This document shows positions 1 through 21,923 of a stretch of 29,889 nt of DNA, piece after piece (position 1 is the first letter of the stretch; each line of letters opens with the position of its first letter). The stretch spans positions 1 through 29,889 of the forward strand of contig NIVC01004967.1 of assembly GCA_002269645.1 (NCBI GenBank), given 5' to 3'. The DNA is from Macrostomum lignano. Lineage: Eukaryota. The notes under the pieces are model-generated. The model saw nothing but the letters and a program-made list of their open reading frames with translations. It did not search any database and was not told the DNA's origin. A program made the position numbers and the translations under genes.

Positions 1-3000
1 GTCCTGATAAATGTCTTCTGTTTGAATGTCCATAATAAAACTGTCTGTGTCAGTGTACAAGAGTTTCATTTTATCCTTGTACTGCTGCTTCATGCCATAG
101 AAGAATTGGTACATCAGACGTTTTGATTCGTCGAGAACAGTGACACCTGTATAGATCGGCTTGCGCAGCGTCACCTTGGTTTTGTAAAATATGATCACAC
201 CTAAGTAGCTATTAAAGATATGGAGTTCTTTGAATGTTGGCTTTGACATATTTGCCTGAATAACATCAGGCTCTGATGAGGTAACAAGTTTCAGGTTTGT
301 TCTTTTCCGCTCATTCTCAAGAGTCTTGCCATAGACAGAGTTGTTGGCCAACTTAAAGAGGTTCTTGTCAAAGTCGTTGGTTGCTTTGGTCCTAAACTGG
401 GTGTTCTTATCAATGTAGGGTTTCATCCACGCTTCCTCTGTAAATGTAAGAGCCCGGTGAACTTTGGTGACCCTGCAACCAAGTGAGATAAAATATCTGA
501 AGCAGTTTGTAATGGATTTTGTAACGTGTCTTGTTGTTTAGATTCTGTGTTAGTTTCTCTGTATGTTCTTTTTCTGTTCCTGACAGGTGCCAAGTTCCAT
601 TATTATCATTGGGAGTTTCGATTATTTTCGGCACTTGATGTTCTCTGGGAAGGGTGGAAAGTCAGAGAAATAGTCGTGAAGCTCTGGTGGAATGTAAACA
701 TCAACCTCATAAATGGCAGCCAATGAAAAGTCCCATTTGAATTCTGATGAGGGTAGCCATCGAAAATCTCTAACTGGAAGATCTTGACTCATCGCCCACC
801 CGTAGAGATTATTAGCGTCCAAGTAAGTAATGTAGTTTGAGGGCTGCTCCTTATTGTAAGATTCAATGTAGGGATTGTTTGCTTTTGCATACCTGTTAAC
901 GCAAATTGAGATTCCCCCTCGCTTTGACGATTCGACAAAATTGTACATGTCAATGTCTGTAAGAAGTTCAATGTACCAATCTGGATCTTGATCCCATTTC
1001 ATTTTAAGCAAAGATTCCCAGCTAGTGGCAGGCAGAGACACATAATGTGCTGGATCGAGGCCATATGCTGTGTACCAGGTGCATCTGAAGGTTTCAAACA
1101 CATCAGCCAGCAGAAACACATCTGTGAAGAGGTAAAGCAGGTGATACTGGAAGAAGTTTTGACAATTAAAGTAATTATAGACATGCTTCGCGTGCTCATA
1201 GTCTTTGTCAGAGATTCCAGAGTCTGTTAGCTTTGAAAAGAACTTCTCCTGTGGTGGTAAACCTTCTTCAAATACGTGATACCCAGTAATATTTTCATAG
1301 GGGTAGAAGCCTTTTTCTCAGGAGTTTAAATGATTCATCAGTGTTGTTAATTTACTTGCAAACATCTTTGTATATGTACATTGTTCATCTTTTAGATTCT
1401 TGCTTAGTTCGTCTAGACTGGCAGCTAGAAATTGATATGAATCCTTCAGTCTTATTTTACCTGTACCCGAATTATCCTGTTTAATATCAACACACTTAAA
1501 CTTCTCCTTGTTCTCTGCGATGCAATCAAGGTGTATGTCTGGAATCATGCCGATTTTTTCAACTATTAAATGCATGTCATAGTTCTTTGCGTTGTGACAA
1601 AATATCGTTAGATCATGAATGTTCGATTTTAGCTTTAGATTACAGGTGTTATGCGCTGCACCTCTAAATTTCCCAGTAAAGTGGCAGTGGTCCCTAACGG
1701 TGGGGTTTTTAATATTAGTGCAAGTTAAATGTTTCCTGCAGATGTGGCAATGAGTTGCTGATAGGAAATTACTTTCATCCTCCTCAGTCATCATTATTGG
1801 AACAGGTTGAAGGGTGCTAATCACTTTTTGCAACTCTAACATTCTGGCAATAAACTGCTCCACACACTGCTCTCCAAAGAAATAATTATACTCAACAAGT
1901 CCTTTTGTATTAATAAAGGCATATGCTACTGAATTGGGGACATGTTTTTGAGTTTGAGTTTGTTTTTGAGTTTCCGGCATGATTGAGCATTCGAAATCAG
2001 CATATACAACAAATGGGAGCTTCTCCATCTTGTGATAGTTCTTAAACCGGAGATACTTCTCTTCAGCTGAAGGAAGAGAGCAGTTTGTCGGGTGATCCTC
2101 GCATGATAATTCATGCTCTGTTAGTTTTCAAAGCGTTCAGGTCCACTGTAATGCTTAAGGCACAAGCGGCAGATGGCAACAGCCTCGTGATGATTATTCA
2201 ACTGCTTGTGAATGAGTCTTGAAAGATCTTTAATCCAAACATAGTGAGCCTCCTCTAGTAAATTACCAATCACTAGAAGATCCACTTCAGTCCGCCTTTT
2301 CCCCTCGGGATCTAAAACGTCTTTGCTACATCTGACCGGTTGAACTTTCTCAGTTTTTTCACTCCACTCAAAGACTGTGATTCTAATTTTGTTATTAAAC
2401 ACTTCTTCTAGCTTTGGGATCTGAGAGATCGCCAAGCCTCCTTTGTCAAACCTGATTCCCTTCTTTTCGCATTCGATGAGATAGTAGTTGAAATAATTTT
2501 GATAATTTGAGGTTCTTTCGGGGTGGTGAGGTACACTAAAAAGTGCAGAAAGAACTGCCCATAGAGCACAGCAATTGTCTTTATTTTTAACATTTATGCA
2601 AGCTTTTTTACCGGCTAGCTTATGCGGGAGCTCTATATAAGAGGAGGCTTTAAGTGGGTCATATTTCATGACCATGACAGTCGCTCTTTGAATCCCTCCC
2701 ACGACCCATCCGGAACCTCTGGATGTAAACGCTTCAATTTTCTTATTGACATCTTGAAGGAAAGGATCCAGTGTGTCTGTAGGGGTGAATGGCTTTGCCT
2801 TTGTTGTCATGTAATACTCGAGATGCTCAGTGGGTTTCGCAGGCATATAAAACGCAATCTTGAATGATATCTGTAGTTTAAAAGTCTTGCGTGTTTTGAG
2901 TGTGTGATCAACAACTGATTGGATGCTGTCTTTATAGTCGTAGATGTTTGCGGTGGTACCGTTGGTGCCGTTTATTGGGATTGTGTACTCTATGTAATGT

Positions 3001-3380
3001 TCTGTAAACTTCCTCTGTGCAAAATTAATCTCTTCAATGGCAAGCTCCGACTCTTTTAAATGGATTAATTGCTCTAATTTCTCTTGTTCCTGCTTATTTT
3101 GTGGGTACTTAGCTTTTTCACCAGTGAGAGTTTCGTATTTGTTAACTAAGTTGCGACTCCTCTCTTGGTGTTCCTTTGCAGAATTTTTTATAGGCGCATA
3201 CTGGTTTGATTCTAATTGATTGATGATTTCCAACTGTTTTTCATAGCTTCCCAGGTGACCAGGGTCGGTGTTGAACTTTTGTTTGCATGCTTCTCTTAGT
3301 GAATTACTTTTGTCTTGAAATGAGACGCCTTTTGAAAAATATTTGTTGACTAAATCTCTTGCTGGATTAGCTTTTGGCAT
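1..3380 (-). pseudogene. Protein-primed family B DNA polymerase (pPolB), frameshifted, 3' end outside the window
   Basis: Stitching frames gives ExoI YADFE, ExoII FCHNAKNYD, KGFYPYE, ExoIII YLFTDVFLL, motif A YLDANNLYGWAM, motif B KLANNSVYGKT and motif C LYTDTDS (about 39-59). The N-terminal 419 aa has GSGW and CINVKNKDNCCALW typical of Maverick PolBs. Frame breaks lie near 2125, 1350, 1314, 625 and 491. Confidence 0.95.
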
Positions 3381-3423
3381 TTTTTTCTATAAAATAAAAA
3401 ATTTTTTTGAGGGTGACCACCCT
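3381..3423 (-). promoter_or_regulatory. Palindromic promoter-like motif upstream of pPolB
   Basis: Minus strand reads AGGGT-GGTC-ACCCT (3423-3410), then C, A7, TT, with 29 nt between palindrome and ATG. The same architecture recurs at 7480-7520. Confidence 0.6.
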
Positions 3424-3504
3424 GATAGAAAAGTTGAACTGTTTCTACATCCTATAAGTAGCGTTAGGTTTATGAAGCTGGATAAAGTGGGGTTTTAAAC
3501 CTCA

Positions 3505-3950
3505 TCACATCCGCATTATTGTAAACCCAGCATTGTGCAGTGTCATGATGGCTTTGACAATGTCAGACTTGCTTACAGAATTTTCATTCTCACAATCATC
3601 ACGATCGGGGCAGCCCTCTCCTGCCTTAATTGTTATACCTTTGTCTCTTGCAATCTTTTGCAATTCAGCTGGTGGGCTCTATCATTCCCAGCTTTAACAG
3701 CAGTTGCTACACCTCCAGCTACACCACCTGCGGCACTTACAGCGCCTGCAATGATCGGAATAAGAGCTGCTAATGGTAGGATTCCTCCTGACTTTTCATC
3801 TGTGATGCTGTGTCTTTGCTCATTACACTGAAGTATTTGCTGCGTGGGATCGATTTTTACTTTGACACCTTTAATTGATATAATACCTGGTTTCTTTGAT
3901 TCAATGATTTTATTGAGTTTATTGATGGTTCTGGTTTCAATCTTTGTCAT
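3505..3950 (-). CDS. Adenovirus pX(mu precursor)-like small virion protein with one frameshift near 3670 (about 148 aa when restored)
   Basis: KSGG-ILPLAALIPIIAGAVSAAGGVAGGVATAV resembles the adenovirus pX C-terminal GGILPLLIPLIAAAIGAVPGIA. Adding one G at CAG(G)CT continues the frame as ELQKIARDKGITIKAGEG...DIVKAIMTLHNAGFTIMRM to TGA at 3507-3505. Confidence 0.7.
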
Positions 3951-3966
3951 TTTTTATTTTAATATT

Positions 3967-5004
3967 TTAATTAATTTCTGTGTCAGCTGGTATCACTAGG
4001 AGTTCAGCTCTAGTGAATGACCGCGTGGGGGATTTAGGGTTAAAGGCCTGAGATAAAAAGTAATAGTCACCGGAGTCGGAGGTAAAATGTCTGTCTATTT
4101 TATGTACATCAAGGCTGAAGTATGGATCTGTAGCTCTTCTTTTGGTGTCCTTCTCTAGCTCTCCAGGTAGATATAAAAAGCGTAGAAACTCAGAGTTTGT
4201 CAGTATGTATGGTGATTCAACTCCTGGAAGCTTAGGGTAGTTCGAGGTGTGTTTTGTGTTGTGTGTGTTGTGTGGGGTTGTCGTGTTGTTGTCTGTTCTA
4301 TGAGATGCCTTAAGTTCGACAGTGTCTTGTTTAATTGCATGGGATGGTTTCAATCCAGTCATGCGTGTGACTTCATTGTTCAGTTGCTCTATAACAGTGG
4401 GGAGCCGGTCTGACCACTTGGTATAGTACTGACCACTTTTTAGTTTCAGCTCTTCAGCTGTCTGCTTAGTGAATAGCCTCTTGGCTAGAGTTAGATTGAA
4501 TCTTTCCACAAAAGCCTGGTCTCTGTGCAAGTTTGTTCTGCCATAGCGAATCTCTGTGTTTTTCTTTTCCATAAGGGATTTCACTACACCCATGAATTCC
4601 TTACCCGGGTCGGTCATAAAGATTTGGGGGTATGTGAGCGGAGAGTTTTTATAAATATCTTGCAGTGCGCTGGCAACAACCTCTGACTTCTTCGTCTTGA
4701 GTGGGCGAGCTTCCTTATATCTGGAAGCAATGTCAATAATTGTAAGAGCATACTTGTAGCCTGAGTCGTTGGGGAGAAACAAAAGATCTGCTTGGTGCGC
4801 TTCATTAGGTTTATAAATACTGAAATGGCGCCTTTCAAATTTTACTGGTGGGAAATAGACTTGAAAGACAGCCTGCTTAGAGAGCCATTTTTCTACTGTA
4901 GCTTTTGGCTCTTTACTCAGCTCCATGAGTTTACTAACAGCATTTTTGCCTACAAAGAATCCTTTGTCGCTGTAGTAGAGTTTTTTAAGTTTCTGATCTG
5001 TCAT
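3967..5004 (-). CDS. Retroviral-type (rve) DDE integrase of Maverick type, intact, 345 aa
   Basis: QADL, LTIIDIASRY, TDPGKEF and FVERFNLTL supply the D-D-E triad. The C-terminal part has YLPGELE..RRATDP..SL and ELLVIP. There is a CA-rich low-complexity insert at about 4245-4295. Confidence 0.95.
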   Translation of the reverse strand: MTDQKLKKLYYSDKGFFVGKNAVSKLMELSKEPKATVEKWLSKQAVFQVYFPPVKFERRHFSIYKPNEAHQADLLFLPNDSGYKYALTIIDIASRYKEARPLKTKKSEVVASALQDIYKNSPLTYPQIFMTDPGKEFMGVVKSLMEKKNTEIRYGRTNLHRDQAFVERFNLTLAKRLFTKQTAEELKLKSGQYYTKWSDRLPTVIEQLNNEVTRMTGLKPSHAIKQDTVELKASHRTDNNTTTPHNTHNTKHTSNYPKLPGVESPYILTNSEFLRFLYLPGELEKDTKRRATDPYFSLDVHKIDRHFTSDSGDYYFLSQAFNPKSPTRSFTRAELLVIPADTEIN

Positions 5005-5034
5005 TTATTTAAAAAGAAAAATTTAAATAAAATA
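5004..5034. promoter_or_regulatory. Symmetric bidirectional intergenic element between integrase and PLA2 genes
   Basis: Only 30 nt separate the divergent ATGs (5004 and 5035). The 10-bp arms TTTATTTAAA (5004-5013) and TTTAAATAAA (5022-5031) are reverse complements. Confidence 0.6.
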
Positions 5035-5484
5035 ATGCAGCGCTCTGGTGGTAAAATAGATTCACATGGACTGATAGAAAAGCTTCCTCGTCCAAACAAA
5101 GGCTGGACACTTCCCGGCTATAAATATTGCGGGCCTTTGAATCCACTTGAAATACAGTTAGATAAAAACAATTATCCAAATCTTGGGCATGAGCCTGTGA
5201 ATGAGCTAGACTCTGTCTGCATGTGGCATGACGTTAAATATAGAGATTTTCCTGAGGAGAAGAATCGCTGGGACAAAGAAATGCTTAGGAGACTAGACAA
5301 TATAGGGGCTTCAAGCGGGTGGAAGGAATCGATCGCTCGGAAGCTAGTTAAAGCTGTTATTTTTAGTAAGGCAAAGTTGGGATTGGGAATGGACGTCGAG
5401 GGTGGGGTGGGTTTTGCATTGCACGCGCCAAGCAAAGAATTAGGAAGACTGCTGAAAGAGCTGGGGGTTGAGAGAGCAGAATGA
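5035..5484 (+). CDS. Parvovirus VP1u-type phospholipase A2-like protein, 149 aa (true start MQRSGG at 5035; the upstream part of the 4792 ORF overlaps the integrase antisense)
   Basis: Ca-binding loop LPGYKYCGPLN, catalytic LDSVCMWHDVKY and a downstream D in WDKEM. Confidence 0.9.
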   Translation: MQRSGGKIDSHGLIEKLPRPNKGWTLPGYKYCGPLNPLEIQLDKNNYPNLGHEPVNELDSVCMWHDVKYRDFPEEKNRWDKEMLRRLDNIGASSGWKESIARKLVKAVIFSKAKLGLGMDVEGGVGFALHAPSKELGRLLKELGVERAE

Positions 5485-5630
5485 TTCAAGTGGCTCTAGC
5501 GGTTGGAAAGAAAGCTTGTAAAGGGCGGCTATATTTTCCTTATGACATTTTGCCGTGTGGTGGGTGGGTGTTGAGCGGAACGGATATGGCAGCTGTTTAT
5601 TGTCAACCATTATCCTATACTCAATGTGCC

Positions 5631-5722
5631 GCAGATACTGCAGTATTCAATGTGAAAAGTATTCAATGTGAAAAGCAGCAGATACTGCAGTATTCAGTGT
5701 GAAAAGTTTTTTATGTGAAAAA
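5631..5722. repeat. Short repeat cluster between convergent genes
   Basis: GCAGATACTGCAGTATTCA occurs twice, each copy with the 12-bp palindrome ATACTGCAGTAT (5635-5646, 5682-5693). TGTGAAAA occurs four times. Confidence 0.8.
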
Positions 5723-5765
5723 GCAAGAGTCATAGCAGCAAGAATCATTAGTCACAGCAGATTAG

Positions 5766-6383
5766 TTAACCCAGGAGTGCACTGGCCTCTTCTTCTTCTA
5801 GCATCTTCAATGCCTCATCGGCATACTTAATTATTGAGCGCAGTCGATACAGCGAGATGCCACAACGATTTAGAATAGGGCGAGTGTTGCTGAGTCTTGC
5901 CACCCGGATTAAGAAATTCCCCCAAACCGGCTTAAATCGAAGCTTCATGGCAAACGCTCTATATTCCTCAGCAGACAGTACGAGCTTCATGCGGATCAGA
6001 ATTTTTCCAGCCTTTATTCCGTATTGAAGTCCTTGATTTTGTAGTTCATTTATCATTTTTTCAATTTTGTTGAGCTCATTCACAACTTCTGCAATGTCGT
6101 GCCTCCCAGAGACAAATTCCACAGCCGGTTGTGGAATGACACGAGCAAGTGAATCACGGAGTAAGTTCGCAGCCTCATTGATGTGCTCCAACTTCTTTCG
6201 TTCGTCAATTCCTTCCACCCTACCAGTGATAGATGGTAGATTAATCACACACTTATTGAATCGCCTCGCAACTTTGTTAAATTCCTCAATCCAATACTTC
6301 GATTGCTTCATGTCATCACTCTCGCACATCCTCCTTACTAAAGCAACCAAATCATCCTCAAATGTAGGCATTGCTATGTCCAT
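5766..6383 (-). CDS. Uncharacterised accessory protein (about 205 aa from MDIAM), helical, possible C-terminal HTH-like domain
   Basis: Uninterrupted ORF. Candidate 74-nt 5'-UTR intron 6464-6391 (AAG|GTAATA ... T-rich tract ... TTTTAG|A). AATAAA on minus at 5601-5596. The domain call is pattern recognition only. Confidence 0.65.
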   Translation of the reverse strand: MDIAMPTFEDDLVALVRRMCESDDMKQSKYWIEEFNKVARRFNKCVINLPSITGRVEGIDERKKLEHINEAANLLRDSLARVIPQPAVEFVSGRHDIAEVVNELNKIEKMINELQNQGLQYGIKAGKILIRMKLVLSAEEYRAFAMKLRFKPVWGNFLIRVARLSNTRPILNRCGISLYRLRSIIKYADEALKMLEEEEASALLG

Positions 6384-6763
6384 TGAAATTCTAAAACACA
6401 TTGTAGGTGAAGTAAATGAAAAAAAAGCAGAACTAGTATAAGCAAATATATTAATAATTATTACCTTGCAGATTTAAAAAAATATTTAGCGCGTATATGG
6501 ATACTGAATCGGGAATCAGTAGTTCTTTAGTAGGTAGAGCTCTGCTCAATACTAAGCTCTACTCTAAGATATGGCTCTAAGAATTTTTCTCAGTGCATTA
6601 TACAATAGATACAGTAGCTTCCGCGCGATCGACACTGACACGGTAACGTTGTTATCCCTGGGCGGCAAATGTGGCAGCAGCTGGTGGAACCGGTTAAAGA
6701 CACAATACGCTCTCTTATACCCAGTAAGTATAAATCTATATTAACCCTGGAAGAACTCTGCCC

Positions 6764-7013
6764 TATACGATTTGCTGTACACGAAATGAGCGGGAGGAAA
6801 ATCTATAGTTTACAACTCCAAGTCCAAGAGGCAAGGCCGTTCTAGCTTCTATTGTGCTACAATTGAGGCACTGGCAAGCAAGAGAGGGAGAGAGGGACGG
6901 GACGGGAGCCATGGACGGGACGGGGCTGCTAGAGTCTGGCAAGCGGGCAGAATTATAGGGCTATTGCCATATACAATTTGCTGTACACAAAATGAGCGGG
7001 AGGAAAATCAATA
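6764..7013. repeat. Pair of 44-bp direct repeats (6764-6807, 6970-7013) flanking a G-quadruplex-type motif
   Basis: TATAC(G/A)ATTTGCTGTACAC(G/A)AAATGAGCGGGAGGAAAATC with 3 mismatches over 44 bp. GGG-N5-GGG-N2-GGG-N2-GGG at 6886-6906. Confidence 0.85.
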
Positions 7014-7083
7014 TTCTTCTGGATCCGAATAATATCGATTTTGGATTGTGCGAGGATCTACAATATCTTGTTCTTCCTCTACC

Positions 7084-7479
7084 CTATTCATTTCCAACCG
7101 TGCAACTAGCTCGCACGTCGCGGAGGAAATTCTCGGGCGGATAGCCCTGCACACTCAGTGTCTGCTCTTTCCTCCTTATTTCCTCCTGTTTTATGTAAAT
7201 ATACTTGTGAATAAATGAACTTAGTATGTTTTTAGTAAACTTCAACTGCCTAATGATTTCTACAAAGTTATAGTAGCTATCGTAATCTTTTACGTAGGTT
7301 ACTCCATACTTATGAAACCAATGTCTTTGGAGAGCTTGATTAATATTAGGGACGATGATATCAACGCCGGGCCAATATTTTCTCATGTACTCGCTGCATT
7401 CAAGTTTGCATCGGTACTTACTCTTGTAATTAGGCTCGTGCGTTTTGTAATAAGAACCTGGAGAGACAACTGGAAACAT
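7084..7479 (-). CDS. Uncharacterised accessory protein, about 131 aa (likely start MFPVV)
   Basis: Open Tyr/Lys-rich ORF. The ATG sits in the A-rich context AATAAAA-ATG like the other Maverick genes and is preceded by the same palindrome as pPolB. Confidence 0.6.
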   Translation of the reverse strand: MFPVVSPGSYYKTHEPNYKSKYRCKLECSEYMRKYWPGVDIIVPNINQALQRHWFHKYGVTYVKDYDSYYNFVEIIRQLKFTKNILSSFIHKYIYIKQEEIRRKEQTLSVQGYPPENFLRDVRASCTVGNE

Positions 7480-7520
7480 TTTTATTGAGAATTTAATTTT
7501 TTTCAAAGGGTAAGGACCCT
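7480..7520 (-). promoter_or_regulatory. Second copy of the palindromic promoter-like motif
   Basis: Minus strand reads AGGGT-CCTT-ACCCT (7520-7507), then TTG, A7, TT, with 27 nt between palindrome and ATG at 7479. Confidence 0.6.
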
Positions 7521-7596
7521 GGGTTAGGGGATTCAAAGTCTTTGGGATGCGTAGCGAATTGCGAATTGAATGTGTGGAGAAGAATACAGATTGTTT

Positions 7597-7920
7597 TCTG
7601 ATTGTTTCGAAGATGCTATGGGTGGATGTCAGTGGATTATGTCAGTGTCAGTGAGCATAACAGGTGTCCTACTGTTATGCTCTGATTCTGTCAGGGATAA
7701 TGCTCTGATTCTGTCAGGGATAATATGGATGGATTTAATAGGATTGTGGAGGATGTTTTGTGAGCGAGTGCGACCCCCCTTTTTTCTGATTCTGTCAGGG
7801 ATAATATGGATGGATTTAGGTGGATTATGGACGAAGTTTTTGGAGCAGGTGCGACCCCCCTTTTTTCTGATTCTGTCAGGGATAATATGGATGGATTTAA
7901 TGGGATTATGGAGGAGGTGA
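7597..7920. repeat. 81-bp (27-codon) tandem repeat, about 3.5-4 diverged copies, probably the decayed 3' end of a minus-strand gene
   Basis: TCTGATT anchors at 7597, 7681, 7704, 7785 and 7866 (81-bp period plus a 23-bp duplication). Minus-frame unit SSIIxLNPSILSLTESEKRGVAxAxKT. Perfect 11-bp hairpin 7653-7682. Confidence 0.85.
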
Positions 7921-7924
7921 AAAA

Positions 7925-9170
7925 TTTTGTCCCAGAAGCCCCCTCATGCCTTCTACTCGGACACGTTATGAGACAGCTGGGCGTTCTGGAATGCCTGGTG
8001 GAGACCACTGGCAACAACGGCCGCTTCAAGGCGGCAGAGCTGCCCGTCATCGACTGTTAACAGGAGTTTGGGCTGCTCGGCCGGAATCTGCTGGTCCTCG
8101 CACCGGTGCACCATGCCAGTTCTGATGAGTCAGCCGCCAGCAACAGGTATGAGAGCTTGTTGGGAATATCTGGTGCTACGGGAGAGATCCGTCTTTGTGC
8201 AGGAGCTAGGCCAATTTTCCAGGCAGCCAGAGAACTGCCCTTAGCGCTGAAGCACTTGGTTAAGAAGGAGCTGGACCTGATGGAAAGTGCTGGAATCGTT
8301 GAGAAGGTGATGTCGTCGGAATGGGGCAGTCCAATTGTGGTGACGGTGAAGTCAGATCGGGCATCCGTGAGAATTTGTGGAGATTATTCGGCTGTTAATC
8401 GGTTGGTTCAAGACCAGACCTTCCTCACTCCCTCGATTGAGACAGCCTTTTCAAAAATGGCCAACAAGAAGCTGTTCTGTCGGTTGGACCTATCGGATGC
8501 GTACTATCAGGTTCCCCTGGATGAGGAATCGAAGGCGGTGACCACCATAAACACTCCGTTTGGTTGCTACAGGTTTAGCCGGTTGCCGTATTTCATTAAG
8601 GTGTCGCCATCTGTTTTTCAACGTGTGATGGAAAAGCTCCTGGGAGACCATCCATGTGTCATAGTATATCAGGACGCTGTGCTGATCGGTGCTGCGAGCC
8701 GGGCAGAGTTGCAGAAAATTAGGGAGCAGGTGCTCAACAAGTTAAAGGCCGCAAATGTCAAGATCAACGAAGCGAAGTGCGTGATGGAAGTTAACAGCCT
8801 GAAGTTTCTTGGTTACATTATTGATGATGAAAGAATAAAACCCGATCCGGGCATGGTGAAACGTGTGATGGATGTCGAGGTGCCGAAGACCAAGAAAGAT
8901 TTGGAGAGATTTCTAGGACTGGCTCAATTTTATAGACGGCTGGTTCCAAACTTTTCTGAGAAATGTCGGCCTCTTCAGGAGCTTCGCCGCGGTGACCGGA
9001 TCAGGCTGGGCTATCGATTCAGGGTGCCAAGGCTGGCTCTGACTCGGAGCTGCGTGAACCTGAGGTGACAGACTGTGACTCCCCGCTGAGTTCTGGAGAT
9101 GAGACTTTCCAGCCCCACAGCTCGTATGATTTGCGGCCTCGTAAACCTGTTTGTTATAAAGGTCTAAAGA
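7925..9170 (+). pseudogene. pol: Defective gypsy pol (TAA at 8058-8060; YQDA instead of YxDD at 8667-8678; internal deletion)
   Basis: Translation of the ORF track frames 7806, 8106 and 9065. Confidence 0.9.
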
Positions 9171-9479: not shown

Positions 9480-9509
9480 TGACCTGACTCAGTTTAGCCT
9501 AGACTAACA

Positions 9510-9671
9510 GCATCTTTGTTACTTTGAGTGACTGAAGCATCTTTGTTACTTTGAGTGACTGAAGCGTCTTGGTAACTTTGAGTGCCTGAAGTGTCTTGGT
9601 AACTTTGAGTGCCTGAAGTGTCTTGGTAACTTTGAGTGCCTGAAGTGTCTGGGTGACTTTGAGTGACTGAA
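9510..9671. repeat. 27-bp minisatellite, 6 copies
   Basis: Unit GCATCTTTGTTACTTTGAGTGACTGAA with variants, starting at 9510, 9537, 9564, 9591, 9618 and 9645. Confidence 0.95.
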
Positions 9672-10087
9672 GCGAAAGCGGAAGCGAAAGCGGAAGCGAA
9701 AGCGGAAGCGAAAGCGGAAGCGAAAGCGGAAGCGAAAGCGGAAGCGAAAGCGGAAGCGAAAGCGGAAGCGAAAGCGGAAGCGAAAGCGGAAGCGAAAGCG
9801 GAAGCGAAAGCGGAAGCGAAAGCGAAAGCGAAAGCGGAAGCGAAAGCGAAAGCGAAAGCGGAAGCGAAAGCGGAAGCGAAAGCGGAAGCGAAAGCGGAAG
9901 CAAAAGCGGAAGCGAAAGCGGAAGCGAAAGCGGAAGCGAAAGCGGAAGCGAAAGCGAAAGCGGAAGCGAAAGCGGAAGCGAAAGCGGAAGCGAAAGCGGA
10001 AGCAAAAGCGGAAGCGAAAGCGGAAGCAAAAGCGGAAGCGAAAGCGGAAGCGAAAGCGGAAGCAAAAGCGGAAGCGAAAGCGGAAGC
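9672..10087. repeat. 12-bp minisatellite (GCGAAAGCGGAA)n, about 35 units, fused to the 27-bp array
   Basis: Direct reading. Variants are 6-bp dropouts and GCG to GCA changes. Confidence 0.97.
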
Positions 10088-11562: not shown

Positions 11563-12439
11563 AAGCTGGGTCAGATAACGTTTTGTCCTTAATTTCACTT
11601 TGCTTTGATATGGATGGTAGATAGTAAAATTTAGTAAAAAATATATAGTATTTGAAAGAGCGGCTTAACAATTTTCTATGAATCTTCGAACGAAATTCAA
11701 CGGCTAACAAGACGAAAAGTATTTAAATATGGAATTATAAAACAGGTACTGTATGAACTTGATGGAGAGCAATTCTTCCAGTAGGTGATTAAAATAGGTA
11801 TTCAGTCAATATCAAATATCGAATGTACAAATGGCTGGCAATATAACTATATTAGGCATTTAAAAAAAGATGAAATTCTTAATAAAAATGTAACAACCGA
11901 AAGAGGGCGTTTAAAACAAAGATTTAAGTAGGCATTAATTGTTTGCAGTTAAAGTATTTACGGTATACGGATAGACTCGATCGCACCGGTATTTGTAAAT
12001 GGAAATAGATACTCGCAGGAAACATTCAAAAAGGAGATATAGCAAAAGGTGGGTATCTAGCTTTGACACCCAAAGGATTCGATTCGATACGGATTCGATT
12101 GGTGTAAGACGTGTACTAACAGCATGGCACACACGGCGTTGTCCAATTTTTTATGTTGGTTGTGGAGGAAGATTATTTATGAGTTTATGAATCTTCTCGA
12201 TAGCTAGCAGGTCTTTTTTAGTTTTGCTTTCGTTTGTAGCACAGCCTAAGCTGTAGAAATGCCGGTAGGGTGGATATTCAAACATTTAAAACGATCGTCA
12301 GTAACTTTAACAAAAGTGACCTACTTCAGCGAATATTTAAACTTTCTATCGTCGAGTCAAATTTAATTTATTAACTGACCAAAAAACTGATTTTGAGATC
12401 ATCGATTAAATAACGATTAAAAGCAAAGAGAAGATTGCT

Positions 12440-14205: not shown

Positions 14206-17200
14206 TCAAGATGCTTGGTACCTGTCCGGTGCTCTCCGGATACGCACTGGGTACCTGGACTCCGAAGGTTGAATTGAACTTGGTTCTTCATCGTCTTCGA
14301 TAGGCTTGGGGGTTTCAGCCTCGGCTCTGTCTCTGACATGGTTCCGGTGCACCACCAGATCTCGTCCTCTATGGTCCTGTACTCGTCTCAGCTGTTCTCC
14401 AACCGCTTCTTGAAGTACTCCCTCTCTCCACTCCTTGTTGAAGGGATCTTGGATCCAAACAGGACTGTGAATTTGATCTGTTTTCTTGTCCTGGAACGAC
14501 CGACGATGTAGCAATGACAGTCTAGTATTAAACTGGCGCCCAAACATTTCTCGACACGGAGCGACACCGTTGGCTCTTGGGCCGACTCGAATGGCGTACA
14601 AAGCTTGTTGCATTCGAACTTCCGGGTCTGGATCGTTTAGCTGTTTTAGCTTGGTCTTCAGCTTTTTCACTGCTACCTCGGCTACTCCATTCGAAGCGGG
14701 ATGGTATCTGGGTGACTTGAGGTGTAGCACTCCAATTCGCTTTAACCAGGCTTCTGTTTCACTTGCAACGAACTGTGGTCCATTGTCAGTAACCAGTACT
14801 TCCGGGATGCCAAAGTTGCAAAACGTTCTTCGCAGCACTTTGATGATGGCTGCCGCATCAGTATCACGAATCCATTCGGCGCTAATAAATCCAGTCTTAG
14901 CGTCCGAGACCACGAGAAAATATCTTCCTTCTAATTGACCCAGGTCAGCATGCACTCGGCACCAGGCTTCCTTTGGTACTGGCCACGGTCTGAGCACAGC
15001 TTTCTGTGACGGTCTTAGGCGTTGACACGTGTGACACTCGGCCACGCACTTTTCAATCTCCGCCTCCATATTTGGCCACCACACATACTGCCGCGCCCAA
15101 GCCTTCATTGCTTGGATTTCTGGATGGGAATCATGGAGAAAGCGCATAACTTGTGCTCTCAACTTTGAAGGGATGGCAATTCGTTGGTCAAATAGCAGTA
15201 GGTTATCCTCGCAGCTCAGTCTGTTCTGCACTTTCCGGAATGGCTCTGGAATATCTTCCCCAGATCGCAAACGACCTAGAACTTCTTGGATCTCCACGTC
15301 TTTTCGGGTTGCCTGTTCTATTTGATCCGCATTGACTGGTCCTTCGTCGGACAGGGAGATATCCACCGCAGCGATTTCGTTCACTGCTTCAGTCACTGAC
15401 CTATCACTCCAGTTGTTTCCCTCAGTTGGGAGTCTTGATAGCGCATCTGCATGTGGAATTTCGTGTGTCCTTTTCCCTCTGATGTTATATTGGTACGTTG
15501 CAAGCAGTTCCGCCCAGCGCTGCACTCGTTTGCTCGCTCTTTCAGGCAGGTCCTTGTGAGATGCGAACAGAAATTCTAGCGGTCTGTGATCTGTCACAAT
15601 CACAAAACTTCGATAGGCCAGAAATCTATTTAACTTCTTGACGCACCAAACCTCACCAAGAGCTTCTCGCTCAAGTTGGCTGTATCGCGACTCGGCAGGT
15701 GTGAGTTTCTTAGACACAAACGCTACAGGCCTTCCATTTTGCTCCAGCACTCCTCCAATGCCGTAGGGCGATGCATCTGTAGTCAGAGTTAGCTCCTCAC
15801 TTGGATCGTACGGCGCTAGCACCTGCCTTGATGTAATGTCCTGCTTCAATTGCATCACGGCCTTTGTGTGCTCTTCTTGCCATGTCCAGCTGACATCTTT
15901 CTTCAGCAGGTCATACAGAATGGCAGTCTTCGTGGCCACTTGCGGAATGAACGGCGCATAGAAATTTATCAGTCCCAGAAAAGTTCTCAGCTCTTCCTGG
16001 TTTCTTGGATCTTCCATGCTTTGTATTGCCGTTACCTTATCCTCGTTCATGCAGCATCCATCCTTTGAGATCTTAAGGGCTAGAAACTCGACCTCCTCCT
16101 TGTCGAACTGGCACTTCTTAGCATTCAGTGTGATGTCATTCTCTTGCAGCCTTTTAAGTATTATTTCCGTCTTCTCGGCTAAATTTTCCCGGTTTTTTTC
16201 CACAGACTAGAATGTCGTCAATGAACACCACCACTCCGAGGACATCCCGAAGCAACTCGCATAGTGTGTTCTGAAACAATCCAGGAGCAGATGACAGTCC
16301 GTATGGTAATACCCTGTACCGAAAGTAACCAAAAGGTGTTGCGATAGTAGTGATATCCCGTGAGTCCTCGCACAGCTCAAGGTTATGGTATGCATCCTTC
16401 AAATCTAGCACAGTGAAACGGCTGCATCCTGAGATGGCTCGTTGCACATCCGCCTTTGTTGGCATATCGATTGGCGGTAGCCGTAAAAACTGGTTGACCC
16501 GTCTATAGTCTCCACACAGCCTGATGTCTCCCGAGCTTTTGGGAACGACCACAATCGGAATAGCAAACACCGGCTGTTCTACTTTTTCAATTATCTTCCG
16601 CTTTTCCAGATCTTCTAATCTTTCCTTAACGGCTGGTACCAGCGAAAATGGGAGTGGTCGGGCCTTCGATACCACTGGTCTCGTGTTTTCTTCTACTTCC
16701 AACTTTACTTGAATTCGCTTATAAGCCACTGAAGCTTGACAACGGCGTTTTGTAACTTCGATACCCAAACTACTGAACCAATTTCGGCCAATAACCGGCT
16801 TTGCGTTCATCTCCATGACTACCACAGGTAATGAGCACTCACTTTCATCTTCGGTCTAAACTCGAACATCTGCGGTACCACATACTGGTAGGTCTTGTCC
16901 TCCATATGATGTTAGTCGACAATTTGGGTCTGTCCAATGCAGTCCTAGTTGTTCAGCCAAAATCTTAGGAATGCAGGTCACTGATGCTCCAGAGTCCACC
17001 ATCATAGCAACGTCCTTATCGTTCAGTTTTACATTGATCCAGACGCTTGATCTGTCCCGGTCATCGCATAAGCTAAAAAGCTCATTGTCCTTGGCTGGTT
17101 TATCCTCCTTGATTCCTGCACACTCTCGCATTGACAGCTTTCCTTTGATGGAGCCGGATGCCATCCTTCCATGTGAGCTAGCTGGCTTATTAAGCTTACA

Positions 17201-17455
17201 TGCAGCTTTAAAATGGTTCATTTTCCCACATTTTCGACATTTTGCTCCAAACGCAGGGCATGCCTTTGGCGGGTGCCTCATCATACAGAAATTGCAAGCC
17301 TTACTGAATGTGCGTCCCTGAGCTTGGGCCCTATTTTGTTGTCGTACTCTGCCCTTGGTCGCACTGACTGTTTCCACCTTTCCATTAGCGCTTAAGGCAC
17401 TCTTGCTTACTTGCTCTTGCGCCGTGGCGGTCTCCACTGCCAGCTCCAGGGTCAA
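14206..17455 (-). pseudogene. pol: gag-pol of gypsy element 2 with an in-frame TAG at 16858-16856 and a frameshift in the A7 run at about 16193-16199
   Basis: ORFs 16856-17479 and 16154-16825 share a frame. ORF 14206-16203 carries the RT C-terminus, RNase H and integrase intact. Confidence 0.93.
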
Positions 17456-19426: not shown

Positions 19427-19830
19427 ACTGTCCACCATTGAGTACCCGAAAACCGTGGCACAGTGAGTACATATTACGCTCGTATCCATCATTGAGCACT
19501 CAGAATTTGTGACAGTGAGCACATATTGTCTATTATTGAGTACTCAGAATCTGTGACAGTGAGCACACATTGTCCACCATTGAGTACTCAGAATCTGTGA
19601 CAGTGAGCACACATTGTCCAACATTGAGTACTCAGAATCTGTGACAGTGAGCACACATTGTCCACCATTGAGTACTCAGAATCTGTGACAGTGAGCACAC
19701 ATTGTCCAACATTGAGTACTCAGAATCTGTCACAGAGGGCACATATTGTCTATTATTGAGTACTCAGAATCTGTGACAAATGAGCACCGATTGTCCACCC
19801 TTGAGTACCTAGAGTGAGCAGACATTGTCC
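19427..19830. repeat. 44-bp minisatellite, about 9 copies, with a palindromic core
   Basis: Unit ACATTGTCCACCATTGAGTACTCAGAATCTGTGACAGTGAGCAC. TGTC anchors at 19527, 19571, 19615, 19659, 19703, 19747 and 19792. Confidence 0.95.
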
Positions 19831-20346
19831 TCTCAAGGACCACTGAAGTCACTTCGTTAGGTAGTCTTCTAAAGTAGGCCTTGTGTCTTCTCTTGAGTTC
19901 CCAGAGGGTGACAAAATGAGCTCTTTAGTGACAATGGCAACCGTTCTTTAGCTAGGCAGATGTTTTGGACCTTCAATCGGTGACTATGGACATCCGGCTT
20001 CGAATTACTCTAATGTCGTTTATCAAGCCTTGACGCTGGAAACCATTTCCTAGTATAAAAAACAGTAGAAACTTATTCCTACTATTAAATGTCAAAGATT
20101 CTTTTGTGCAAGCTGATCGTTTAAATTAATGAAGCCCGACTGTCACTTCCAGGCACTGTTCAGCATCAATAACTTTTCACAAATTGAACATGCTCTGTCG
20201 TGTTGTCCCCAAGCGCGAAGCGAAGGCCTTAAAAGTCCTCGATGACACAAGTAGCTTCCACCTGATAGTTGAACTCTCATGCAGAGTCTCGATCGCTGTG
20301 CAAAAATCGGCCGACTTGATTGTCTGTAAGGTCTAAAATTGGCTCA

Positions 20347-21106: not shown

Positions 21107-21184
21107 GAGAGTCCTATTTGACTGGAGATGCCGAACTGCTTACCACAAACTCAGCTGCTCAAAAAAATCTCTCTGAGCAGTGAA

Positions 21185-21923
21185 ATGTTCCGCCCAGCAG
21201 CGACTCTCTGCGTTCTGTTCTGCACTGCCTTCCTGTTGACTTTCGTCACCTGCAGGTTCGTCCGCTTCTCCTACCTGGGATGCTACGAAGACCGATCCTC
21301 AGCCAGAGACCTGAACGGGCTCAGTGGAGTCAGCAAGATTGGTGGATTTGATGTCGATAACGGGCGAGTCAGAAGTACTACGGAGATGTCGCACGAGCTG
21401 TGCAGCGGCATCTGCTCGATAGGCAGCTTCCCGTACTTCGGAGTGCAGCATAAAAAAGAGTGCTACTGTGGTCACTCATACGGATCCCATGGCTTGGTGA
21501 GCGAAGCCGACTGCAGCAGGGATTGCGTGGGAAACGCAATGCAGAAATGTGGCGGCGGCTACAGAAACTCCGTGTTCTCCCTGAGCTACCCAGGTACTGT
21601 TCTGATTTCTAAGTCTTAGTACCTATAGCCAGAATGAAAGCATGCTAATTATTTAAAAGTTGCATCTTCGTTGAACTTCAGTTTCAGACAACAACATCTA
21701 CACGGTAGTGAAGCAGTCCAGCCCTCCCGTGACATCCGGTACGACTTCCGTCTGGCCTGTCGCTGCCCAGTCCGTCGAGGACTGCCTGCTCCGGTGCAGC
21801 GCCAGAGCCGACTGCCAGGCCGCCGTTTTCTCCCGACAGGAGCTCGCCTGCCACCTGCTGGAGTTCGTGTACCCGCCTGGCCACCTGAGCGGACCCGAGT
21901 GGACTCTATTCGTGCGTGGCTGA
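21185..21923 (+). CDS. Secreted WSC + PAN/apple-domain protein, 214 aa, two exons (21185-21593, 21688-21923)
   Basis: Signal peptide MFRPAATLCVLFCTAFLL. WSC motifs YLGCY, C..IC, YFGVQ...ECYCG and C...C.G...QKCGG. Phase-1 intron G|GTACTG...CTAAT...TTTCAG|AC joins in frame to CLLRC...CQAAVF...CHL. AATAAA at 22023-22028. Confidence 0.9.

Follow-up and report, generated by a model that had tools for sequence, protein, structure and literature searches.

A spaced dyad before the polymerase gene and an orphan gene of a decayed Maverick in Macrostomum lignano, a candidate site for a dimeric factor

How the genes of animal Mavericks (Polintons) are controlled, and what wakes their integrated copies, is the question addressed here through a short inverted repeat in Macrostomum lignano. 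The repeat, AGGGT-N4-ACCCT, lies in contig NIVC01004967.1 (assembly GCA_002269645.1), which was analysed over a stretch of 29,889 bases (the window). It precedes two genes of an element that, judged by its gene set, is a decayed Polinton/Maverick with the Alpha-type adintovirus genes for a protein-primed DNA polymerase B (pPolB), protein X (pX), an integrase and a PLA2-domain protein. The two genes are pPolB and an orphan open reading frame (ORF), ORF7479. We lean, by a modest measure, towards reading the dyad as a DNA site near the promoter, common to pPolB and ORF7479 and bound by a dimeric factor. Coming from a single decayed copy, it is a good lead and does not amount to a rule for the family.

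The dyad has exactly two exact matches in the window, at 3410-3423 and 7507-7520, a number attained by none of 100 shuffles of the window. When up to two mismatches were allowed, 13 sites were found against 8.0 expected, and not one of them carried exactly one mismatch; the two exact sites therefore stand alone and do not head a family of weaker ones. Read on the minus strand, the first site is AGGGT-GGTC-ACCCT and lies 29 nt before the pPolB start codon (3380), in the non-coding DNA that separates pX from pPolB, and the second is AGGGT-CCTT-ACCCT, 27 nt before the start codon of ORF7479 (7479). A C stands directly before each dyad, and AAAAAAATT (A7TT) comes after it at a distance of 1 or 3 bases, at 3400-3408 and 7495-7503, two of the five occurrences of this word in the window. 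Both leaders on the minus strand are A/T-rich; that of pPolB (3381-3409) runs from A7TT into a T tract and has a TAG, resembling a splice acceptor, 6 nt before the ATG, and that of ORF7479 covers 7480-7506. The arms, spacers, A7TT and distances had been described in this way by the original prediction, and the description agreed with the sequence letter by letter. A reading frame is open through the second dyad, but it is not coding-like (codon-model score -0.076), and the motif as part of a coding sequence was rejected.

Between the two leaders the arms were identical at 10 of 10 positions and the spacers at 1 of 4, while the flanks upstream of the dyads matched at background level (8/24, 6/25 and 17/50). 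Such a contrast suggests a selected dyad pattern rather than a decaying duplicate. Within 120 nt before the integrase, PLA2, pX and ORF6383 genes (the last an unnamed ORF of the element) no dyad of this type was found except for one site with two mismatches, which is 86 nt before pX and falls in integrase coding sequence. With this exception the predicted absence from the integrase, pX and PLA2 genes was confirmed, and the leaders of these three genes were purely A/T-rich.

Shuffle tests covered the leaders (100 nt) of six genes (pPolB, pX, integrase, PLA2, ORF6383 and ORF7479), counting shuffles in which any pair of leaders had an identical dyad with 5-bp arms and a spacer of 0-10. When the arm had to have at least two G/C and the two positions could differ by no more than 5 nt, 2 of 20,000 shuffles contained such a pair. 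The number rose to 13 when any position was accepted, and was 102 for any arms within 5 nt. For 200-nt leaders the four versions of the test gave 3, 45, 19 and 394 of 10,000. As a control with real sequences, we compared 656 leader pairs from 23 sequences with at least three long ORFs (22 relatives and the window). A shared GC-containing dyad was present only in the window and in one related locus (L002), and position-matched only in the window. We concluded that the dyad at matched positions is non-random under the dyad statistic, though this statistic is post hoc.

According to the reading we favour, the 14-mer would act as a double-stranded DNA cis-element of two transcription units, the terminal ORF7479 and pPolB. 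The 5-bp arms of the 14-mer, spaced by about one helical turn, would be read by a protein with two-fold symmetry, to which the spacer sequence would be immaterial. The A/T-rich stretch after the dyad would hold the transcription start region and a short 5' leader; with the start there, the dyad would coincide with the start site or immediately precede it, and could switch both genes together. The pair would thus be controlled separately from the genes for the integrase, PLA2 and pX. Candidates for the binder are a host factor and the ORF6383 protein of the element. We infer the promoter position, the protein binding, the co-regulation and the early timing of the two genes; the early or replication regulon put forward by the original prediction is likewise a proposal, drawn from two sites.

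Several observations weigh against this reading, and some would suit a coincidence, in which A/T-rich leaders, general in Polintons, carry a chance repeated 5+5 dyad that was spotted by eye. The dyad statistic was picked after the sites had been seen, and there are two sites only, in one decayed copy. With any arms at any position, 848 of 20,000 shuffles of the 100-nt leaders contained a shared dyad, a repeated GC-rich dyad anywhere in 1-7960 arose in 17 of 300 shuffles, and 81 spaced palindromes were counted in 8 kb. Local alignment of the pPolB and ORF7479 leaders was not significant (140 of 2,000 shuffles reached it), and three other pairs among the 15 aligned about equally well (104, 175 and 195 of 2,000). 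With the proximal segments shuffled at local composition, A7TT came to follow the dyad in 1,068 and 697 of 20,000 trials; the A7 tract is present at both sites as predicted, but it is a weaker signal than had been claimed. Outside the element, at 11864-11891, 28 nt match the ORF7479 leader with its ATG at 89%, with neither dyad nor ORF there. Moreover, an upstream activator site would be expected farther from the ATG than 27-29 nt. Because the plain alignment is not significant and A7TT is weak, the evidence rests on the position-matched dyad. Its rarity in shuffles, its lack of any position-matched counterpart in the 22 relatives, and the fact that the pPolB ORF and ORF7479 both behave as real genes speak against coincidence, which we consider unlikely.

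The related loci bear on both sides. None of nine window proteins was present by exact sequence in the protein collection, the closest homologue of the pPolB N-terminal region was at most 37% identical, and the phage collection had no protein or DNA match to the element. A scan of bacterial and archaeal genome contigs yielded 48 distant Polinton-like loci. No sister copy was found in the protein and phage collections, the bacterial and archaeal genome contigs or the trees. The trees were built from single unbroken frames, with 26 of 31, 32 of 41 and 10 of 10 rows kept (the third a quick tree), and in them all relatives were distant and the window element sat on a long branch (1.2, 1.25 and 0.72) with no supported sister; its end branch corresponds to 1.2 changes per site. 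The window integrase grouped with those of L001, L002, L007, L030, L031 and L033 in a group of seven. Polinton-like contigs were present in many bacterial and archaeal genome bins, presumably as contamination that comes from eukaryotic hosts or free viruses.

The pPolB N-terminal region was reached in 30 of the 48 loci; 19 starts were judged usable and, after two near-identical pairs had been collapsed, 17 leaders were scanned over 150 nt. The original prediction had proposed such a scan of related Mavericks, and its outcome, in distant relatives only, was divided: the exact AGGGT-N4-ACCCT was found in 0 of 17 leaders before pPolB, while a shorter core, GGT-N4-ACC, was found in three (L007, L030 and L043) against 0.23 expected (p 0.0006). 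This core was the top of 239 dyad types seen in the relatives' leaders. More of the arm was present in L007, where GGGT-N4-ACCC (9 of 10 arm bases) lies 8 nt before the ATG (1/17, p 0.008), and when a spacer of 3-5 was accepted, GGGT-N3-5-ACCC was counted in L007 and L017 (2/17, p 0.0002). The site in L017 and L029, AGGGT-GGT-ACCC, was taken as weak because its spacer is 3, it lies about 79 nt out and it overlaps an upstream stop codon. The three core sites have TATA-like spacers, unlike GGTC and CCTT, and lie at 8, 17 and 62 nt before the pPolB ATGs. They had been seen before the tests were fixed, and the upstream ORFs of L007 and L030 are homologous; dropping either locus left 2/16 (p about 0.02). 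The full motif with A7TT occurred in 0 of 48 loci, and A6TT was not enriched in the pPolB leaders of the relatives (3/17 against 1.2 expected). The single exact motif match among the loci, in L016, lies inside pPolB coding sequence and was set aside. These sequence comparisons give weak support for a wider GGT-N4-ACC core and no support for a family-wide motif rule.

A different word, TG[AT]CAC[AG], was noticed post hoc in 5 of the 17 pPolB leaders (L001, L002, L015, L033 and L043; 0.5 expected, 1 of 3,000 shuffles) and is another candidate for a Polinton polymerase-leader motif. By eye, an ATACC-type leader word was seen to be common to the terminal small ORF and pPolB of L007 (790-821 and 1111-1132) and L030 (95-127 and 428-458), the same two genes that the dyad pairs in the window.

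The L007 and L030 word is better read, by eye, as a one-way, TATA-like ATACC that also stands before the terminal small ORF, and this bears on the view that the symmetry of the window dyad is incidental, the sequence being a one-way host-type core-promoter or factor site, or a relic of a leader copied before the other gene. A CAGGGT half-site with no partner at 6744-6749 would fit such a view. The first site contains GGGTGGTC, which we take to be close to a GLI site, but the second site has no GLI-like core, and CAGGGT by itself shows no enrichment (11 against 9.8 expected). A relic would have lost everything except the arms, since the flank identity is at background. We find a one-way site or a relic improbable.

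The two sites could also be read in RNA. Under this explanation the C-AG-G of the left arm would be a 3' splice site or spliced-leader acceptor about 40 nt before the ATGs, or the pPolB dyad would lie in a 5' intron ending at the TAG. At both sites a pyrimidine-rich run (11/14 and 9/14) is followed by CAG|G, 41 and 39 nt from the ATG, and the second acceptor-like site 6 nt before the pPolB ATG has parallels in four relatives with an acceptor-like site within 12 nt of theirs; a donor/acceptor-like pair is also present in the ORF6383 leader. However, a splice signal accounts for the four bases CAGG only, and not for the GT or the right arm, and at the 9/14 level the minus strand of the element has 64 such acceptor-like sites. 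Nor does either site fit YTNCAG, the spliced-leader acceptor reported for Macrostomum lignano in the accessible text of PMC8629364. Taken together, we judged RNA processing to be quite unlikely as the source of the dyad.

An RNA stem-loop, acting as a terminator or polyadenylation hairpin, would explain the inverted arms, and the first site does form a 5-bp hairpin in the predicted fold. The minus strand of the second site, however, folds otherwise, with the centroid unpaired (z-scores of the two sites -0.82 and 0.09, no better folding than in shuffles), there is no Rfam match at E <=1, and upstream of the second site there is no gene to terminate. Equally, the sites might be a pair of recombination sites around a 4.1-kb cassette. 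Recombination sites of the lox, FRT or dif type need matching spacers and longer arms, and here the spacers match at 1 of 4 positions. The hairpin, the Rfam family and the recombination pair were rejected on these grounds, and we give them hardly any credence. The dimeric protein-binding site with a free spacer named by the original prediction is partly supported: the matched dyad is non-random, and the second site, where no hairpin forms, favours a DNA reading over an RNA hairpin.

For ORF7479 (131 aa, 7084-7479, minus strand) we asked whether it is a gene of the element at all. With a codon model trained on seven ORFs of the element its coding score was 0.117 (z 2.8, reached by 2 of 1,000 shuffles) and the other five frames scored negative; an ATG frame of this length arose in 24 of 2,000 shuffles. 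ORF7479 thus looks coding in its codon use. The reverse transcriptase (RT) of a neighbouring Gypsy element also passes the model, so that the model shows coding and not membership of the element. No homologue was found: 0 of 3 and 0 of 54 candidates held up, and there was no Atlas match. Two NCBIfam matches were set aside with scores far below the cut-off, and the structure model is of low confidence (pLDDT 37.6). A 27-codon acidic frame at 7008-7091 (minus), overlapping the end of ORF7479, is coding-like (z 1.6), and the gene may be frameshifted near its end.

ORF7479 reads inward from a candidate element end. The candidate terminus, 5'-AGTAG at 7953-7957 on the minus strand, has five of the six bases of the (AGT)2-type end motif described for animal Mavericks in the accessible text of PMC8097293. 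Tandem repeats at 7594-7946, with periods of 81 nt (7704-7912) and 23 nt (7677-7724) and degenerate copies at both ends, are likely the terminal-repeat region, and a Gypsy-type retrotransposon pol fragment (RVT_1; 7958-9068, plus strand) flanks the terminus outside the element. This is the one candidate end inside the window; the other lies outside it. If the terminus at 7957 is right, some 440 nt separate it from the second dyad, and the first gene to be met inward of it is probably ORF7479. The gene order of L007 is alike, with AGTAGT, repeats, a small ORF and pPolB. The dyad had been said to tie the orphan ORF to the element; its place inside the likely end agrees with this, but the end itself is a candidate.

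A dyad of this kind would need a small symmetric dimer, and the predicted homodimer encoded by ORF6383 (205 aa, 5766-6383, minus strand) is for this reason a candidate binder. Its predicted structure is all-helical (pLDDT 83). In the two-copy model it formed a homodimer through helices 97-132 with a score of 0.58, where the best of three controls reached 0.00, and the dimer runs shared at least 47% of contacts with a pLDDT of at least 60. Among proteins from microbes the mark used for a homodimer was passed by 21 of 30 solved pairs and by none of 23 single chains; among those from eukaryotes the figures were 17 of 29 and 0 of 30 (1 of 7 where no older solved relative existed). ORF6383 has eight homologues at E <=0.001, one of which (P0031) starts at the same ATG, and it was not found in the 48 Polinton-like loci.

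On the opposing side, no DNA-binding family or fold was found for ORF6383 in Pfam, PHROGs, NCBIfam or the families of solved sequences, and Foldseek gave no match at E <=0.001 among solved and viral structures. In a wide structural search the best Z was 6.7; the helix-turn-helix region of Spo0J ranked 32nd (Z 5.2, rmsd 4.7, 96 aligned), a likeness of the model that is within noise for helical proteins. A DUF3102-like appearance was not borne out by Pfam on nine members. The ORF6383 leader itself has no dyad. If the site is real, we regard it as possible, though doubtful, that the modelled ORF6383 dimer is its binder. A bolder version, that the homodimer binds the dyad operators before pPolB and the terminal gene, gates replication (latency against activation) independently of the integrase and virion genes, and that some other Polintons retain the GGT-N4-ACC core before pPolB, is a long shot. 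If true, an animal Maverick would carry its own transcriptional switch. A 14-bp site before pPolB together with a candidate binder would offer a direct handle on how animal Mavericks are controlled, and a means of assigning accessory genes to expression classes. Donor- and acceptor-like signals at 6391-6465 (minus) point to a possible short intron within the ORF6383 5' leader.

Operators of dimeric proteins, for example the palindromes of the ParB/KorB type, have inverted arms and a sequence-free spacer near the start site. The window is similar in its inverted arms and free spacer and in the small helical predicted homodimer encoded nearby; unlike those operators, the dyad is known from sequence alone.

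Closer to Mavericks, the Polinton-like virus PgVV has the giant-virus early promoter AAAATTGA (10.1101/2022.07.28.501842). As far as the available text of that source goes, PgVV resembles the window in that a short motif, read as an early class, is common to the leader of the DNA polymerase and those of a few other genes, but its motif is one-way, A/T-rich and borrowed from the helper giant virus, whereas that of the window is a G/C-armed spaced dyad. Six matches to AAAATTGA were found in the window and none in the pPolB or ORF7479 leader; the giant-virus early promoter, with its conserved TG before the start codon, was rejected for both leaders. In three loci of one clade AAAATTGA does stand directly before pPolB (L008:144-151, L009:146-153 and L012:5836-5843), which suggests giant-virus dependence there.

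For mavirus and the EMALEs a TCTA late motif and other promoter motifs have been described (PMC8547959; 10.64898/2026.07.28.741278). In the portions of these sources at hand, the motifs are specific to the element type and lie in the 100 nt before ORFs, as in the window, but they belong to protist virophages needing giant viruses, come from many ORFs and copies and are not dyads. Leader motifs before polymerases are thus already known in virophages and Polinton-like viruses, as far as these sources extend, and the window dyad differs as a G/C-armed spaced dyad. For animal Mavericks the accessible text of PMC8502044 and PMC8097293 describes terminal motifs only and no promoter motif, and predicted factor sites in a Polinton terminal repeat are mentioned in the part seen of 10.1101/2024.01.15.575659. 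No promoter motif for animal Mavericks was found in the literature consulted, including the available text of 10.1101/2023.08.22.554363, PMC12220804 and PMC11161782; subscription papers and supplements may bear on this.

The Maverick identity named by the original prediction was borne out by Pfam matches for pPolB, pX, the rve integrase and PLA2. The same genes, pPolB, rve integrase, PLA2 and pX, are given for animal Mavericks and Alpha adintoviruses in the accessible part of PMC8502044; the window resembles these also in the AGT-type motif at its candidate end, and differs in having PLA2 and pX as separate genes. The pPolB gene (1-3380, minus strand; PF03175, PF02945) runs past the window edge and is split into several frames, with ORFs at 2121-3380, 1318-2028, 622-1002 and 1-426; 23 full-length homologues were found. 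The pX gene (3520-3950, minus; PF05829, E 2.3e-7) is frameshifted: its first frame, 3633-3950, stops early, and coding-like sequence continues in another frame to about 3520. The broken pPolB and the frameshift in pX indicate that the copy is decayed. The retroviral-type integrase (3967-5004, minus; PF00665, E 1.7e-8) is an intact ORF of 345 aa, 44-50% identical to the integrases of five related loci. Divergent from it lies a gene with a parvovirus-type PLA2 domain (5035-5484, plus; PF08398, E 6.2e-14). Capsid, penton, packaging ATPase and protease genes were not among the ORFs of 1-7960, and the element continues past the left edge.

Some minor features were recorded along the window. The start codons of the integrase and PLA2 genes are only 30 nt apart (5004-5035), and the spacer between them is an A/T palindrome with 10-bp arms, possibly a minimal two-way promoter. 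The convergent PLA2 and ORF6383 genes are separated by a region in which 47 nt are duplicated in tandem (5628-5721), each copy having a perfect palindrome of 12 nt. In the non-coding DNA from ORF7479 to ORF6383 there is a 49-nt direct repeat (6759-6807 and 6965-7013, 92%) with the word TTTTCCTCCCGC, which we take to be reminiscent of E2F sites. Beyond the element we observed 27- and 12-nt tandem arrays (9509-10087), a second Gypsy element (14206-17284), a 44-nt array (19441-19836) and a WSC-domain host gene (21128-21619).

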